64,000 bases of DNA, from the NCBI GenBank assembly GCA_019244185.1, contig JAFATB010000018.1:96001-160000 (forward strand). The letters run 5' to 3'. The notes under the pieces were generated by a model that had not been told where the DNA came from, searched no databases, and was given only the letters and a program-made list of their open reading frames with translations. Source of the stretch: Acidobacteriota bacterium (GTDB taxonomy: Bacteria; Acidobacteriota; Thermoanaerobaculia; Gp7-AA8). This document shows positions 11,905-20,028 of this stretch, in pieces. The translations under genes and the position numbers were made by a program. Each line of letters opens with the position of its first letter. Position 1 is the first letter of the stretch.

Positions 11905-12025
11905 GGGACGCGGAGTATAACACGCGGGGTCAGGCGCTTCGTCCCGCCTGTTTCCCGCCGCTTCGCCCATGGCGCTTCGCGCGCGAACGACCTAACATGT
12001 GCGCATCCACCTAGGTGAAGCTCTC

Positions 12026-13174
12026 ATGCCGCACGCCTGCAGCATCGTGCCGCCGCGCATTCTGCGCAATCTCGCCGAGCGCGGCGATGACGACGACCGC
12101 GTCCGCGCGCGGCTCGCGCTGACGCTCTCCGCGGGACCGCGCCGCGAACGGCTCGCATCCGTCGAAGTCGCCGGCGCGATCGTGCTGCTGCCGCGCGCGA
12201 AACGCCGCACGATCTACGACGCGCATCACGCTCACGAGCTGCCCGGCGTCATCGCGCGCCCCGAAGGCGGACGCCGCGTGCGCGACGTCGCCGTGAACGA
12301 GGCCTACGACGGCGCCGGCCGTACGTACGACTTCTTCCGCCGCGTCTACGGCCGCAGCTCCGTCGACGACCAGGGACTGCGTCTCGAGTCGACCGTGCAC
12401 TTCGGCGACGGCTTCAACAACGCGCACTGGAACGGCCGGCAGATGATCTACGGCGACGGCGACGGCAAGTACTTCAACCGCTTCACCTCCGCGCTCGAGG
12501 TGATCGGCCACGAGCTGACGCACGGCGTCTCGCAGTACTGCGCGGCGTTCGCCGCGAGCGGCCAGGCCGGCGCGCTCGCCGAGCACTTCTCCGATGTCTT
12601 CGGCGTGCTCGTCAAACAGTACGCGCTGCGCCAGACCGCCGCGCGCGCGAACTGGCTCGTCGGCGAAGGACTCTTCACGAAACGCGTGCACGGCGTCGCC
12701 ATCCGTTCGATGAAAGCGCCCGGTTCCGCCTACGACGATCCGATCCTCGGCCGCGACGAACAGCCGTCGCACATGCGCGACTACGTCACCACCGCGTCCG
12801 ACGATCGCGGCGTGCACGTCAACTCCGGCATTCCGAACCACGCCTTCTATCGCGCGGCCACGCTCCTCGGCGGACACGCGTGGGACGTCGCGGGTCGCAT
12901 CTGGTATCACGCGCTCGCGCACGAGCTCGGACCGCGCGCGCGTTTCCAGCAGTGCGCCGACGCCACGTTCCGCGCCGCGGGCGCGCTCTACGGATCGGTC
13001 AGCGAGCCGCAGGATGCGGTGCGCGCCGCGTGGCGAGCCGTCGGCATCGACGTCGCCGCAATCGACGAGCCTCGTCTGCCGATCCGCAAGCCATCATCGC
13101 GCAAGCCTGCATCGCGCGACGTCTTCGAACACCTCGGCCCCGGCGCCGAGGTGCCGCTCTTCGACGTAGGTTGA
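12026..13174 (+). CDS. M4-family metallopeptidase, protealysin-like
   Basis: Short propeptide CSIVPPRIL; NNAHWNG, GDGDG, HELTHG, GALAEHFSD, VHVNSGIPN. Confidence 0.88.
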   Translation: MPHACSIVPPRILRNLAERGDDDDRVRARLALTLSAGPRRERLASVEVAGAIVLLPRAKRRTIYDAHHAHELPGVIARPEGGRRVRDVAVNEAYDGAGRTYDFFRRVYGRSSVDDQGLRLESTVHFGDGFNNAHWNGRQMIYGDGDGKYFNRFTSALEVIGHELTHGVSQYCAAFAASGQAGALAEHFSDVFGVLVKQYALRQTAARANWLVGEGLFTKRVHGVAIRSMKAPGSAYDDPILGRDEQPSHMRDYVTTASDDRGVHVNSGIPNHAFYRAATLLGGHAWDVAGRIWYHALAHELGPRARFQQCADATFRAAGALYGSVSEPQDAVRAAWRAVGIDVAAIDEPRLPIRKPSSRKPASRDVFEHLGPGAEVPLFDVG

Positions 13175-14584: not shown

Positions 14585-14661
14585 TGGTAGACCCCAGCGG
14601 ACTCGAACCGCTGACCTCCACCGTGTCAAGGTGGCGCTCTAACCAGCTGAGCTAGGGGTCT
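14585..14661 (-). tRNA. tRNA-Val(GAC)
   Basis: Acceptor AGACCCC/GGGGTCT-A-CCA, D arm TAGCTCAGCTGGTTAGAGC, anticodon arm CCACC-TTGACAC-GGTGG, GGTTCGAGTCC. Confidence 0.97.
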
Positions 14662-14747: not shown

Positions 14748-15755
14748 TCAGAACGCGCGCTCGATCGTGAGCCCGACCGTCGTGCCCTGCGAGAACGTCT
14801 CGTGCTCGGCGGCGTTGAGACCGTGCGAGTAGAGCTCGCGATAGATCGAAGGCGTCACCGTCGCGCCGAGGAGCGGATAGGTGAGCTGCAGGCGCAAGCC
14901 GCCGTTCGAGAAACCGGTGCCTTCGTCGACCGCTCCGTGCCAGCGCCCGATCGTCTGGTATTGACCGGCGGCGCGGAGGCCCAGGCTTCCGCGTCCAACG
15001 CTGAACGACGGCCCGATGCTCCAGCGGAAATTCTTCGGCGCGCGGAAGCCGTGCGCGTTCGTCGTGAGCGGCACCGTCGCCTGCAGCAAAGCGGAAGCGA
15101 TGGCGTTGCGCAGCGGCCGGCTCCACGCGATCTCCGCTTCCGGCGCGAAGACGCCGCTGCCGAACTGCAGGTGTTCGTGCTTCTCGCCTTCGAGTCCGAG
15201 ACGCACGGGATCGGGAACGGTATGTCCGAGAGGCAGCGTGGTGCCGAGCCCGAAGCGCCACCGCGACGCGCCGGTCGCCCGCGGCGCCCACAGCACGAGC
15301 AGATCGCCGTCCGAAACACCGCGCAGCGTTTCGGTGCGATGGTGAATGTCGCCGTACGGCGGGATGAAGGATTGGCCGTCGAGCGTCGTGTAGCGCACGC
15401 GTTGATCCTTGATGTCGTACGGCAGCCGCAGCGACACGCCGATGCCGTCGCGCACGCCGTAGATCGCGTTCAGCTCCGCGTGAAAGAGCGCGAGACGCAC
15501 GTGGTGCTCGTGATCCGGAATCGTCATCGCCGCACACTCGACCGGCGCAACGTCGGGACACGTCGCCACGTGCGCGGTGTTGAACGTGCCGTGCGCGAAC
15601 GACGTGGAGATCGACCACGCGCCGGGCGCCGGAACCGTCTGCGTTGCCCCTCCGCCGGAGAGGTTGGGATTCGCTCAGGCGGGTCAGGCGTAAGCGCTCG
15701 GCAGGATGCCGAGCATCGCGACGACGAGCAGCACGAAACGAAGCGCGCGCGTCAT
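14748..15755 (-). CDS. Candidate selenoprotein: exported outer-membrane beta-barrel/transporter-like protein with N-terminal UxxU motif (in-frame TGA at codons 24 and 27)
   Basis: ATG 15755 overlaps the upstream stop (ATGA), GGAG SD; signal peptide MTRALRFVLLVVAMLGILPSAYA, then TGA CCC GCC TGA, then open frame to 14748 ending ...GLTIERAF; His clusters DHEHH, DIHH, KHEH. Confidence 0.75.
15647..15663 (-). promoter_or_regulatory. Putative bacterial SECIS hairpin
   Basis: mRNA ccucucc-GGC-ggagggg; G-led apical loop 18 nt after the second UGA and 27 nt after the first. Confidence 0.55.
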
Positions 15756-16408
15756 CGCTCCGCCTTCTCGATCGCCGCCAGCACTTCGTCCCACATCCCG
15801 CCCGTCACCGCGACGACGAACTTGCCGCGCGCGTCGTACACGCGAATGTACGGCAGCGCTTCCGCGCGCAACGCCGTCGCCTGCTTCGCCGCGTCGTTGT
15901 CCCACTTGCCGATGTTCACCCGACGCACCGCGAGATTCGGCTTGCCGCCGATCATGAGGTGCTGCAGCCGCGCCTCGAGCACGCGACACGGCCCGCACCA
16001 GTCGCCGTAGAAGTCGACGATCGTGACCTTGCCCGGCGCAAGGATCGCCGGGATTTCGACGCGCCGCCCATCCGCATACGTACGAATGTCGAGCCGCGCC
16101 ACGACCTCCGCCGGCAACGGCTCGATCCCCCGCGCCGTCTCGCCGGGAAACACCGCCTGGAACCCCGCGTTGCTCACCGCCACCCGCAGCTTCTCCCGAT
16201 CGAAACCGGCCGCCACCTCCACCGTCGCCGTCTTCGCCTTCGCATCGACGCGCGCACGCTTCACGCCGTCGACCGCCCCGAGCGCCTTCTCGATCGGCGG
16301 CCCGCACATCGCGCAGTCGATTCCCACCACCTCGAACGTGAACGTATCCGCCGCGGCCATGACCGCGGTGAAGAACGTCAGCAACAGCGAAAACGCAATG
16401 CGAATCAT
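15752..16408 (-). CDS. Exported heavy-metal-associated (HMA) domain plus thioredoxin domain protein
   Basis: Signal peptide ending AMA; HMA motif GIDCAMC..IEKAL..VDGV; thioredoxin motif IVDFYGDWCGPC; AAAGGA SD. Confidence 0.88.
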   Translation of the reverse strand: MIRIAFSLLLTFFTAVMAAADTFTFEVVGIDCAMCGPPIEKALGAVDGVKRARVDAKAKTATVEVAAGFDREKLRVAVSNAGFQAVFPGETARGIEPLPAEVVARLDIRTYADGRRVEIPAILAPGKVTIVDFYGDWCGPCRVLEARLQHLMIGGKPNLAVRRVNIGKWDNDAAKQATALRAEALPYIRVYDARGKFVVAVTGGMWDEVLAAIEKAER

Positions 16409-16422
16409 CGGATCCTTTCGCA

Positions 16423-16461
16423 CGAAAACGAAACGCCGCTCCGGTATAACCGGAGCGGCGT
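16423..16461 (-). terminator. Intrinsic terminator after tRNA-Val(CAC)
   Basis: 13-bp perfect stem acgccgctccggt/accggagcggcgt followed on the minus strand by ttcgttttcg. Confidence 0.8.
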
Positions 16462-16475
16462 GAGAAATGTTCGTT

Positions 16476-16551
16476 TGGTAGGCGCTAGCGGACTCGAACC
16501 GCTGACCCCCACCGTGTGAAGGTGATGCTCTACCGACTGAGCTAAGCGCCT
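16476..16551 (-). tRNA. tRNA-Val(CAC)
   Basis: Acceptor AGGCGCT/AGCGCCT-A-CCA, anticodon arm TCACC-TTCACAC-GGTGG, GGTTCGAGTCC; upstream TTGACG-18 bp-TATCTT promoter. Confidence 0.97.
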
Positions 16552-16802: not shown

Positions 16803-17195
16803 CTACTTCTTCTTCGACGATTTCTTCGAGCTTGAGGACTTCTTCGAAGAGCTCGACTTCTTCGACGACGACGACTTCTTCGACAAGGACTTCGACGGCG
16901 AGCGTTTCGTCGACGACGAGGACTTCTTCGACGACGACTTCCGCGATCCGCCCGACGACTTCTTCGCGCTCGACTTCTTCGACGACGACTTCGAGCTCGA
17001 CGACTTCGACGACGACGACTTCTTCGACGGCACTTTGCCGCCCTCGCGACGCGCCTCGGAGAGACCGATCGCGATCGCCTGCTTGCGGCTCGTCACCTTC
17101 TTGCCCGAGCCACCGCTCTTGAGCGTGCCGTGTTTGCGCTCGTGCATCACCTTCTCCACTTTGTCGTGCGACTTCTTCCCGTACTTACTGGCCAT
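16803..17195 (-). CDS. DUF6496-type small basic protein with Ser/Lys-repeat tail
   Basis: KVEKVMHERKHGTLKSGGSGKKVTSRKQAIAIGLSEARREG; AGGAGG SD; SSSKK repeats. Confidence 0.85.
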   Translation of the reverse strand: MASKYGKKSHDKVEKVMHERKHGTLKSGGSGKKVTSRKQAIAIGLSEARREGGKVPSKKSSSSKSSSSKSSSKKSSAKKSSGGSRKSSSKKSSSSTKRSPSKSLSKKSSSSKKSSSSKKSSSSKKSSKKK

Positions 17196-17261
17196 CCAAA
17201 ACCTCCTGCACAGAACGTTGTGCAAGCGGCGAGCCCGTGCATTCGCGCATACAATCCGCCG

Positions 17262-18680
17262 ATGCGCTGCCGACTGCTTTTGCTCGCGTGTCTCGCACTC
17301 CTCGCCGCATCGTCGCTCCACGCCGCGACGTTCGACGAACAGTTCCTCGACAAGACCATGCGCGTCGACTACTTCCACACGTCGACGCCGCGCGGCGACG
17401 AGATCCTCGCGCTCGACGCGATCGTCTCCGACGGCCCGTGGTCCGGCAGCCGCACGCAGCTCATTGATCGCTCGAACCTCGGCAAGTACTACTTCGAAGT
17501 CGTCGATCGCGACACGAATCAGTCGCTCTACTCACGCGGCTTCGCGTCCGTGTTCGGCGAGTGGGAAACGACGCCCGACGCCAAGTTTCGTCCCGGCACG
17601 TTTCACGAGTCGCTGCGCTTTCCATGGCCGAAGAAGCCGGTGCAGGTGATCCTCAAGAAGCGCGACGAAGCGAACGCGTTTCAGCAGATCTGGTCGACGG
17701 TCATCGATCCGAACTCGCGCGCCGTCAATCCCGCCGATCGCGCGCCGGCGGGACGCGTGTGGTCGTACCTCGACAACGGTCCCGCGTCGCAGAAAGTCGA
17801 TCTGCTCGTGATCGGCGAGGGGTACACCGCCGCGGAGATGCCGAAGCTGCACAAGGACGTCGAGCGTCTCGTCGGGAAGCTCTTCGCGACGGACCCCTTC
17901 AAGTCGCACAGGTCCGACTTCAACGTGCGCGTGCTCGAGTTGCCGTCGGCGAAGAGCGGCATCCATCAGCCGCGCACGCGCGACGACCGCCGCACGACGA
18001 CCGGCGTCGAGTACAACATCTTCGACTCCGAGCGTTACGTGCTCACGCTCGACAACAAAGCGATGCGCGACGCCGCGTCGTCCGCGCCCTACGACTTCCT
18101 GGAGATCCTCGTCAACGAACAGCAGTACGGCGGCGGCGGGATCTTCAACGATCAGGCGACGGCGGCGGTCGACACCGGCTTCGCCGAGTACGTCTTCGTC
18201 CACGAGTTCGGCCATCACTTCGCGGGCCTCGCCGACGAGTACTACACCTCGCCCGTGTCGTACGCGACCGGCGCGACGGAACATCCGGAGCCGTGGGAGC
18301 CGAACATCACCGCGAACGGCGCGCATCCGAAGTGGATGGATCTCGTCACGCCCGGCACGCCGCTGCCGACGCCGTGGGACAAGGCCGCCTTCGACAAGCA
18401 TTCGGTCGAATACCAGGCCGAGCGCGTGCGGCTGCGCGAGTCGGGCGTCCCCGAGGCGCAGATGGACGCGCTCTTCCGCCGCGAGCTCGATTGGGACACG
18501 AAGTTCCTCGGGTCGCAGCAGTATGCGAACCGCGTCGGCGCGTTCGAGGGCGCGGGCTACGAGTCGACCGGCCTCTATCGGCCGCAGAGCGACTGCATCA
18601 TGTTCTCGCGTGACGAGGTCGGGTTCTGCCGCGTATGCACGCGCGCGATCGAGCGCGTGATCGACCTGTACTCGCATTAG
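17262..18680 (+). CDS. M64-family (IgA peptidase-like) secreted metallopeptidase
   Basis: Signal peptide; KVDLLVIGEGYT, YGGGGI, HEFGHHFAGLADEY, YRP..DCIM....FC.VC. Confidence 0.9.
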   Translation: MRCRLLLLACLALLAASSLHAATFDEQFLDKTMRVDYFHTSTPRGDEILALDAIVSDGPWSGSRTQLIDRSNLGKYYFEVVDRDTNQSLYSRGFASVFGEWETTPDAKFRPGTFHESLRFPWPKKPVQVILKKRDEANAFQQIWSTVIDPNSRAVNPADRAPAGRVWSYLDNGPASQKVDLLVIGEGYTAAEMPKLHKDVERLVGKLFATDPFKSHRSDFNVRVLELPSAKSGIHQPRTRDDRRTTTGVEYNIFDSERYVLTLDNKAMRDAASSAPYDFLEILVNEQQYGGGGIFNDQATAAVDTGFAEYVFVHEFGHHFAGLADEYYTSPVSYATGATEHPEPWEPNITANGAHPKWMDLVTPGTPLPTPWDKAAFDKHSVEYQAERVRLRESGVPEAQMDALFRRELDWDTKFLGSQQYANRVGAFEGAGYESTGLYRPQSDCIMFSRDEVGFCRVCTRAIERVIDLYSH

Positions 18681-18692
18681 AATTCAGGCGTC

Positions 18693-19202
18693 GTGTCCCT
18701 CACCTTCGTGATCGGTACCGCCGCCGACGTGTTCGGCGAGGCGCTCGCCCGCGCGGTCGAAAGCGCGCTGGCGCCGCACTTCGCCGTGCCCGCGTCGCAC
18801 GCGCAGGGCGCGTACGAATCCGAGCCGGTCGATGCCACGGGATGGCGACGGCTGCAGGAGCGCGTCCTGCGCACGCTCGACGTCGCGCCGCAGCTCACGA
18901 CGATCGATGCCTATCAAGCGGTCTACGTCCCCGAGGCGCACGCGCAGATCGAGCATCTGCCGGTGGCGAATGCGGCCGATCCGCTGCAGGTCGGCAGCCT
19001 CCCGGCGCTCATCGACGAACTGCAGCGCTTCGCCGCGAGCGCGTCGCTGCCGACGGACGACGTGGAGCTCATGCAGCTCGCAGCGCATTATCTCGAAGGC
19101 GACGACGCGGACCGCGATCTCGACGTGCAAACGTACGTGCAGCTGATGCTCACCGCGAAGCAGGCGTCGGCGCGCGGGCAGGCGCTCTGGGTCGTTACTT
19201 AG
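18693..19202 (+). CDS. Hypothetical protein
   Basis: Open frame with host-like codon usage filling the gap; TAGAAT just upstream. Confidence 0.65.
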   Translation: MSLTFVIGTAADVFGEALARAVESALAPHFAVPASHAQGAYESEPVDATGWRRLQERVLRTLDVAPQLTTIDAYQAVYVPEAHAQIEHLPVANAADPLQVGSLPALIDELQRFAASASLPTDDVELMQLAAHYLEGDDADRDLDVQTYVQLMLTAKQASARGQALWVVT

Positions 19203-20028
19203 TTCGCGCGGGCTCGCGCGGCAGCTCCTCGTTGCGGCACCACTCGCTCCAGCTGCCGACGTAGAGCGACGCGCCGTGCAGCCCCGCGGCTTCGAGCGCG
19301 AGCAGCGTGTGGCACGCGGTGACGCCGGAGCCGCAGTGCACGATGACGCGTTCCGGCGGGATGTCGCCGAGGAACGCTTCGTATTGGCGACGAAGCGCGG
19401 CGGACGGCTTGAAGCGGCCGTGCACGAGGTTCTCGACGAACGGCAGATTGAGCGCGCCGGGGATGTGCCCCGCGATCGGATCGATCGGCTCGGTCTCGCC
19501 GCGATAGCGTTCGCCGCTGCGCACGTCGAGCACGCGCCACGACGGATCGTTGCGCAGCGTGTCGACGGCATCGCGATCGACGATGGGCCACTGCCACGAC
19601 GTCGCGGGATACGGCGGACGCGGCGCGGTGTGCGGCTCGTGCGTCGTCACGGGCACGCCCGCGACCGTCGCGGCTTCGAGGCCGCCGTCGAGCACGTCGA
19701 CGCGTTCGTGGCCGAGCGCGCGCAGCATCCACCACGCACGGGCGGCGGCGTTCGCGCCGAACTGGTCGTCGTAGACGATGACGCGGGTCTCGGGACCGAT
19801 GCCCCATGCGCCAAGCTGCGCGGCGAAGCGCTCGACCGGCGGCAGCGGATGGCGTCCGCCGCGCGTCGCATCCGCGCCCGCGTCGCGCGCGGCGCTGAGA
19901 TGCTCGTCGACGTTCGCGCGGCGCGCGCCGTCGAGATGTCCCTGCTCGTAGCCAGCCGCGCGCGCGTCGAGCAGTACGACGTCGGGATCGGCGTAAACGC
20001 GCGCGAGCTCTTCGGGCGAGACGATCAT
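19195..20028 (-). CDS. Tandem-domain sulfurtransferase (rhodanese/SseA-like)
   Basis: GRHPLP, AARAWWML, LDGG, GHIPGA, active loop CGSGVTAC, LYVGSWSEW. Confidence 0.93.
   Translation of the reverse strand: MIVSPEELARVYADPDVVLLDARAAGYEQGHLDGARRANVDEHLSAARDAGADATRGGRHPLPPVERFAAQLGAWGIGPETRVIVYDDQFGANAAARAWWMLRALGHERVDVLDGGLEAATVAGVPVTTHEPHTAPRPPYPATSWQWPIVDRDAVDTLRNDPSWRVLDVRSGERYRGETEPIDPIAGHIPGALNLPFVENLVHGRFKPSAALRRQYEAFLGDIPPERVIVHCGSGVTACHTLLALEAAGLHGASLYVGSWSEWCRNEELPREPARTK

Follow-up and report, generated by a model that had tools for sequence, protein, structure and literature searches.

We analysed a 64,000-nucleotide stretch of contig JAFATB010000018.1 from an Acidobacteriota bacterium (hereafter the window), and found that its gene at positions 14748 to 15755 on the minus strand very probably represents a real, previously unnamed family of outer-membrane beta-barrel proteins that carry two selenocysteines (Sec, U) and have a thioredoxin partner. 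In this gene, two in-frame UGA codons spaced like those of a CxxC motif directly follow a signal peptide, the same two codons are UGA or cysteine (Cys) codons in homologues from several phyla, and a hairpin resembling the bacterial selenocysteine insertion sequence (SECIS) lies just downstream of the UGAs. An earlier note, made from the letters of the window alone, had proposed that the gene encodes a metal-binding outer-membrane selenoprotein with two Sec read from one SECIS.

The features of the locus are collected in Table 1. The ATG of the barrel gene (15755-15753) overlaps the stop codon TGA of the upstream gene (15754-15752) in an ATGA, and read-through of both UGAs gives a 23-residue signal peptide, U-P-A-U and 308 open codons with the C-terminal end ...IERAF. 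The overlapping start codon, the 23-residue signal peptide ending in AYA, the TGA CCC GCC TGA stretch and the length of 335 residues had all been placed correctly in the earlier note, and the histidine clusters, the CPDVAPVEC pair and the C-terminal Phe that it listed are present in the translation. Also as it had argued, the barrel has no signal peptide unless the UGAs are read through, since the longest open reading frame (ORF; table 11) in the barrel frame otherwise starts at GTG 15569 and encodes 273 amino acids. Both TGAs agree with sequencing data: contigs of metagenome runs X1-X3, possibly the source samples, span 15333-15845 with 0 differences. In the independent soil run X4 a single contig of 1918 nt spans the whole stretch with 88 differences, in a listing that ends short of 15675-15686. 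By comparison with its homologues, the barrel gene is intact. In short metagenome contigs that are otherwise divergent on both sides, the 41-nt core 15650-15690, comprising both TGAs and most of the hairpin, shows 1-2 differences, and no other part of the gene appears to be as well conserved in co-occurring relatives. A lipoprotein with Cys or Sec at position +1 was considered and rejected, as the residues preceding the motif in the family (AYA, AQA, GQT, GFA, ADA) resemble signal peptidase I sites when judged by eye.

Table 1. Features of the double-Sec barrel locus and neighbouring genes (window positions).
Feature	Position	Strand	Description
Whole gene	14748..15755	minus	335 codons plus stop TGA 14750-14748; two in-frame UGA
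Signal peptide	15687..15755	minus	23 codons, MTRALRFVLLVVAMLGILPSAYA; AxA cleavage site adjoins the first UGA
UGA-CCC-GCC-UGA, read as Sec-Pro-Ala-Sec	15675..15686	minus	Predicted mature residues 1-4; UGA1 15686-15684, UGA2 15677-15675
SECIS-like hairpin	15647..15663	minus	7-bp stem CCUCUCC/GGAGGGG, loop GGC 15656-15654, -9.3 kcal/mol on its own
Mature body	14751..15674	minus	19-residue tether (ANPNLSGGG...) after U-P-A-U, then predicted 12-stranded beta-barrel, final Phe
Upstream partner gene	15752..16423	minus	Secreted HMA (GIDCAMC) and thioredoxin (WCGPC) fusion; likely start ATG 16408
Two-domain rhodanese protein	19195..20028	minus	Neighbour; no link to the barrel seen
M64 peptidase	17130..18680	plus	Neighbour; no link to the barrel seen
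Thermolysin-type M4 peptidase	11999..13174	plus	Neighbour; no link to the barrel seen

Conservation of the two codons was assessed among 61 related genomes, of which three are unpublished (G002, G024, G042), lack the gene and affect denominators only, and in a scan of a species collection (one genome per species) that returned 387 relatives, the best 80 of which are covered by the locus counts given below. A six-frame search found the gene in 15 of the 61 related genomes. All 15 matches covering the N-terminus contain two TGAs, the two TGA-less matches beginning at query residues 69 and 258, and U-P-A-U stands directly after a signal peptide of 17-24 residues in 14 of these loci. Among the 80 loci, [U/C]xx[U/C] directly follows the signal peptide in 76, from several phyla, at 145-185 residues before an HxHxQFGxG motif; TGA occupies motif codons in 59 of them, whereas 17 are all-Cys. 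Both codons are TGA in 57 loci, down to about 30% protein identity, as UPAU (43 loci, Acidobacteriota and Planctomycetota), UAGU (nine, mostly Myxococcota), UAAU (four, mostly Myxococcota) or UGAU (one, Poribacteria). The mixed forms are CSAU (one locus, in the same poribacterial metagenome-assembled genome as the UGAU copy) and CPGU (one locus, Sericytochromatia), and the all-Cys forms are CPAC (ten loci, Bacteroidota), CAGC (six) and CAAC (one). UPAU itself recurs in a clade whose identity to the window protein is only about 31% (GQT/UPAU/SNPAIPRGG). The 72 aligned proteins, less L074 and L075 with their frameshifted C-termini, gave a tree of 70 on which the Sec/Cys state changed at least three times, with at least two of the changes forced by well-supported branches.

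The four loci without the motif comprise two that end at a contig edge (L090, L091), one with UPAU out of frame with the body (L077) and one copy split in two pieces (L072). Frame breaks within the gene were seen in L072, L074, L075 and L077, the C-termini of L074 and L075 being scrambled, and these copies could be assembly indels or decaying copies.

The variants above include the homologues with CxxC, CxxU or UxxU right after the signal peptide that the earlier note had called for. Two of the outcomes that it had named as adverse were not observed: the position is not devoid of Cys or Sec in homologues, as the motif occurs in 76 of 80 loci, and the TGAs are not private nonsense mutations followed by decay, as they are common to 57 loci and the downstream part is not decayed. 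With respect to the tests used for bacterial selenoproteins, the in-frame UGAs are conserved and homologues with aligned Cys exist (17 all-Cys and 2 mixed). The comparison thus argues that both UGAs are selected as sense codons interchangeable with Cys.

The opposite view, that the TGAs are true stops, would make the locus either a pseudogene or a leader ORF of 23 codons with a separate barrel gene beginning after it. Gene callers annotate the locus in this way, and all 120 database homologues among the matches listed start downstream, covering at most 88% of the query and lacking its N-terminus. This view is nevertheless scarcely credible, considering that both TGAs recur at the same codons and have Cys as their counterpart in full-length homologues, that a barrel needs export but the part past the TGAs lacks its own signal peptide, and that decay is absent downstream while the X1-X3 contigs agree with the window at the site. 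A profile search of 1.84 billion cluster representatives (50% identity clusters) retrieved 1512 members (E <= 0.001), 327 of them at E <= 1e-30, and 133 of the 150 best profile matches begin past profile position 10; such late-starting matches are the signature of clipped Sec forms or fragments. When 18 representatives were fetched, 17 of them starting at profile position <= 10 and one at 18, 16 had CxxC and two had the second Cys only (QATC). The distant subgroup formed by P0274 and P0284 retains only this second Cys (GQATCSNPG), and P0284 has a WCPPC stretch after the barrel.

The hairpin was evaluated against criteria for bacterial SECIS (bSECIS) elements, namely a loop of 3-9 nt with a G in its first two positions, a stem of 4-16 bp, a location 16-37 nt past the UGA and a minimum free energy <= -7.5 kcal/mol (PMC13188914). 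A strict version of this test, a bulge-free script, was applied to both codon positions. The window hairpin lies within these limits (Table 1) exactly where the earlier note had put it, its loop starting 27 nt downstream of UGA1 and 18 nt downstream of UGA2. The note's further expectation that the hairpin be confined to TGA versions also held, as 40 of the 59 TGA forms passed the strict test versus none of the 17 all-Cys forms, and in all 59 TGA forms the lowest-energy hairpin has its loop start at nt 26-32.

The hairpin region aligns gap-free across the family but in two registers. In the group with a GGUC loop (n=12), 98.8% of cells pair and three of the seven pairs show compensatory change, giving a covariation score that 0 of 500 shuffles reached, while slid registers pair at 43-58%; the compensatory pairs (C-G, G-C, U-A, G-U) fall at third codon positions of Leu and Gly, that is, at synonymous sites. 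The clade of the window (n=40, GGC or GGU loop) has 93.4% paired cells, and a single pair there shows compensatory change (6 cells, from C-G to U-A). RNAalifold did not recover the hairpin from a mixed alignment of 14 sequences, the register being offset by one base between clades, and the structure was therefore set per clade. An Rfam search gave no match to a SECIS family and found only two tRNA-Val genes. In the Bacteroidota CPAC forms (L079-L115), a long-range pairing of nt 19-23 (CCNGC) with nt 49-53 (GCNGG), counted from the first Cys codon and about 25 nt apart, was considered and dropped as weak, its single variable pair being kept in 7 of 10; the Pro-Ala and Ala-Gly codons alone may account for it.

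Several points weigh against decoding of both UGAs through this hairpin. The strict test was failed by 19 of the 59 TGA forms, owing to bulged stems, lower stability or a loop without an early G. In the window, the 50-nt segment that begins with UGA1 has a folding energy of -13.6 kcal/mol (z = 0.03), a value equalled or bettered by 98 of 200 shuffles, and the lowest-energy fold of these 50 nt is a competing pairing. A single hairpin would have to serve both UGAs, which lie 9 nt apart, and as a stop at either UGA would leave a signal peptide only, the yield may be low. Nevertheless, comparison and covariation, rather than folding energy, indicate that the hairpin is conserved beyond chance and under structural selection.

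The earlier note's proposal depended on Sec machinery, and selA (402 bits), selB (378 bits), selD (372 bits) and a tRNA-Sec (71 bits, anticodon TCA) are all present in the window's genome, which is 98.9% complete; a second match above the tRNA-Sec cut-off is a tRNA-Ser. The selD gene (G000:C6:611614-612546, L025) contains one in-frame TGA, so that SelD is here a selenoprotein as well. SelB exceeds its cut-off in 58 of the 61 related genomes and therefore does not discriminate carriers from non-carriers within the class. Across phyla, SelA was found in five of five tested genomes with Sec forms (Myxococcota, Planctomycetota, Poribacteria, Sericytochromatia) versus none of five with Cys forms, a comparison of ten genomes whose completeness is not established. 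These data bear on whether the UGAs could be read through as cysteine or another standard residue rather than as Sec. Cys at both positions in 17 homologues does indicate that Cys is functionally acceptable there, yet such decoding is very improbable given the covarying SECIS-like hairpin of the TGA forms, which the Cys forms lack, and the distribution of SelA. Moreover, the only tRNA with a TCA anticodon in the genome is tRNA-Sec, and TGA also terminates both the barrel gene and the upstream gene.

The claim of an outer-membrane beta-barrel gained a high-confidence predicted fold. An AlphaFold2 model built from a 72-sequence alignment reached a predicted local distance difference test score (pLDDT) of 91.6 and a predicted template modelling score (pTM) of 0.86, with 12 barrel strands as read from the strand list, and the product is accordingly modelled as an exported 12-stranded barrel. 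In VIA, the model matched the COG4313 channel Pput2725 (4rl8) with Z 22.7 and a root-mean-square deviation of 2.7 A over 247 residues, FapF (5o65) with Z 22.5 and autotransporter barrels with Z of about 16.8; Foldseek agreed for FapF (E 2e-10). PcoB (7pge) was set aside as a middling fold match only (Z 11.7). The resemblance to COG4313 and FapF lies in the 12-stranded barrel fold, and in a protein atlas some of the neighbours of the Cys form P0123 are clusters of PF13557 (Phenol_MetA_deg). Identity is however only 13-14%, and the Sec form has no Pfam match at E <= 1. In the portions of the COG4313 study consulted, neither a U/CxxU/C motif nor an invariant His cluster was encountered, and a thioredoxin partner and a metal context were likewise absent (PMC4493636).

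Residues invariant over the 72 sequences are U/C24, U/C27, N29, P30, H84, H138, H139, D149, H193, H195 and Q197-F-G-x-G, and the strand order of the model would place the invariant histidines, together with D149 and QFGxG, on outer loops. Both termini of the barrel should face the periplasm. Neither Pfam nor NCBIfam has a family for the read-through protein at E <= 1; five Cys forms are likewise without a Pfam family, a 12.8-bit match to OMP_b-brl in one of them being the sole match, and the one Cys form searched against NCBIfam had none. In their source annotations, the Cys forms are labelled 'hypothetical protein'.

The upstream gene (16423 or 16408 to 15752), whose end overlaps the barrel ATG, encodes a secreted fusion of an HMA domain (CAMC) and a thioredoxin (WCGPC), and is translationally coupled to the barrel gene. 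By tblastn, a relative of this partner lies directly upstream in most of the 76 motif loci; the match is full length in Acidobacteriota and Bacteroidota and mostly limited to the thioredoxin part in Myxococcota, while eight motif loci gave no partner match at E <= 1e-3. Fusions are also found: among 18 family members of at least 398 amino acids, 15 have a C-terminal thioredoxin match (one below the Pfam cut-off), four of these 15 also have a cupredoxin-like domain, and one of the 18 carries an HMA domain. Conserved adjacency and fusions thus mark the thioredoxin as the dedicated partner of the barrel. With the termini facing the periplasm, a fused thioredoxin would lie next to the N-terminal U/CxxU/C. 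The triple fusions of barrel, thioredoxin and cupredoxin-like domain (P0235, P0250, P0261, P0269) point to copper in some lineages, and in P0146 a CPAC barrel is followed by an HMA domain at the C-terminus.

Gene context adds a link to mercury in the Cys forms. The gene order at a Saprospiraceae locus (L095) is ArsR/SmtB, MerTP (268 bits, cut-off 180), HMA-thioredoxin, barrel and MerA (503.8 bits, cut-off 454.45). MerT adjoins six of the ten Bacteroidota CPAC loci, and MerA is found within the flanks of L095 and L111 and, in L115, about 5 kb away on the same strand. A P-type ATPase is near a Saprospiraceae locus, MerR, a second thioredoxin and ArsR are near a Polyangia UAGU locus, and a YHS-redoxin with BlaI and BlaR accompanies a Poribacteria locus. 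The likeliest function, which we put at somewhat under an even chance, would be that the barrel and its partner deal with soft metals at the outer membrane: Hg(II) at mer-operon loci, and copper in lineages with a fused cupredoxin-like domain.

A number of observations speak against such a metal role for the window gene. Its genome has no MerA above the cut-off (best 366.6 bits versus 454.45) and no MerT match, and its neighbours are unrelated peptidases, so that the mercury link is borrowed from the Bacteroidota Cys forms. Furthermore, the fold relatives COG4313 and FapF transport hydrophobic molecules or polypeptides, not metals. In the model, residues 20-40 have a pLDDT of 60-71 and residues 35-46 align with the N-terminus of 4rl8, and at such low N-terminal confidence the model does not fix where U-P-A-U lies with respect to the lumen and the His cluster. 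The metal-binding part of the earlier note therefore stands only in part: it is favoured by the gene context (the HMA-thioredoxin partner, the fusions with thioredoxin, cupredoxin-like and HMA domains, and the mer operons), and not by the window's own genome, which lacks MerA above the cut-off and MerT.

Some of these observations also speak for a non-metal role of a real double-Sec barrel, either as a COG4313-type redox-gated channel with an N-terminal plug locked or freed through a diselenide that thioredoxin reduces, or as an outer-membrane-anchored selenol/thiol oxidoreductase acting on envelope or external substrates. In addition to the missing mer genes, such a role is favoured by the nearest solved folds, those of the COG4313 channel and FapF; in the former about 14 N-terminal residues fill the lumen, according to the portions of that study consulted (PMC4493636). 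The universal partner and common fusion is thioredoxin rather than HMA, the Myxococcota partners being without the HMA part. However, HMA, cupredoxin-like, MerTP, MerA, MerR, ArsR, P-type ATPase and YHS proteins or domains recur beside or fused to the barrel in separate phyla, and the five invariant histidines together with the U/C pair resemble a metal site; on balance, a non-metal role seems rather unlikely.

Returning to a double-Sec barrel that handles soft metals, the following course can be envisaged. The single conserved hairpin would recruit SelB carrying Sec-tRNA(Sec) to decode both UGAs. After export, signal peptidase I would cut behind AYA, and the mature protein would then consist of Sec-Pro-Ala-Sec at its start, a tether of about 19 residues and a 12-stranded barrel of the COG4313/FapF type. 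The co-transcribed periplasmic HMA-thioredoxin would be its working partner: the WCGPC thioredoxin would keep or reset the diselenol, and the HMA domain would exchange a thiophilic metal with it through its CxxC. The diselenol would thus bind a soft metal or cycle with thioredoxin, and the N-terminal U/CxxU/C pair would be a high-affinity ligand that may thread into the lumen towards the invariant His cluster. The most elaborate version, an outer-membrane selenol relay in which a lumen-threaded, thioredoxin-reduced Sec-x-x-Sec and the outer-loop His cluster form a metal site reachable from outside, is a doubtful one.

Eukaryotic selenoprotein L is a soluble protein with a thioredoxin fold, a UxxU motif and a SECIS in the 3'-UTR. 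Named in the earlier note, it resembles the barrel in the UxxU motif. The cysteine-pair hand-over of Hg(II) along the Mer chain (MerP/MerT/MerTP, MerA) offers another likeness, and in L095 the Cys-form pair lies inside a mer operon, but the barrel shares no sequence relationship with the Mer proteins. An outer-membrane mer component was not encountered in the portions of PMC8261052 consulted, whose Figure 1 legend shows diffusion.

In agreement with the earlier note's statement that no family of this kind is described, and with the Pfam and NCBIfam searches, a 2026 catalogue of 119 prokaryotic selenoprotein families contains none like the double-Sec barrel (PMC13188914). Its three UxxU families are Prx-like, NF041115 and FmdB, and its two outer-membrane barrels are GSU2204/MtrB-PioB (NF041027) and a TonB-dependent receptor of the FCYXU type (NF049945) (PMC13188914). 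NF041115 is likewise bacterial, with two Sec spaced like CxxC and a link to soft metals of the mercury type, but it is a small soluble protein of the HMA fold, whereas here UxxU opens a mature outer-membrane barrel. The NF041115 profile (cut-off 95 bits) gave no match to the barrel at E <= 1 and matched only the HMA domain of the partner, at 29.2 bits (31.2 bits in the own-genome search). NF041027 and NF049945 are also outer-membrane beta-barrel selenoproteins, but with one Sec each and from other, larger barrel families, and the double-Sec barrel matches neither profile at E <= 1. The portions of PMC9312934 and PMC12013277 consulted make no mention of such a family. The open full-text literature searched on bacterial UxxU, outer-membrane beta-barrel or Acidobacteriota selenoproteins, or on Bacteroidetes mer operons with merT and thioredoxin, holds no description of it; supplements and subscription papers were outside this scope, and a prior mention there is possible.

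In the window, the gene pair stands alone between tRNA-Val(CAC) at 16476-16551 and tRNA-Val(GAC) at 14585-14661 (-), an arrangement found in none of 12 related loci checked for tRNA-Val flanks. A terminator-like hairpin of 13 bp (16461-16433) between the first tRNA and the partner start leaves about 25 nt for a promoter, and the next terminator-like site (14560-14546) lies past the second tRNA-Val.

The family described here would be a large cross-phylum selenoprotein family that is systematically clipped by current annotation, and counts of the selenoproteome and the outer-membrane proteome are therefore too low in Acidobacteriota, Myxococcota, Planctomycetota and others. It also offers a natural and well-sampled case of two UGAs 9 nt apart with one hairpin, in which variants with GGUC or GGC loops, with the Cys forms as controls, could be used to probe how spacing governs SelB-dependent decoding. 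A soft-metal role would link selenium to metal handling at the outer membrane, a site with no mer or copper component in the portions of the literature examined. If the selenol relay were true, mercury and copper detoxification would gain its first dedicated component at the outer membrane, either a gate for capturing Hg(II) or Cu and passing it inward to HMA, MerT and MerA, or a means of surface metal reduction or sequestration, and the much tighter Hg-Se bond would explain why Sec predominates wherever Sec machinery exists.

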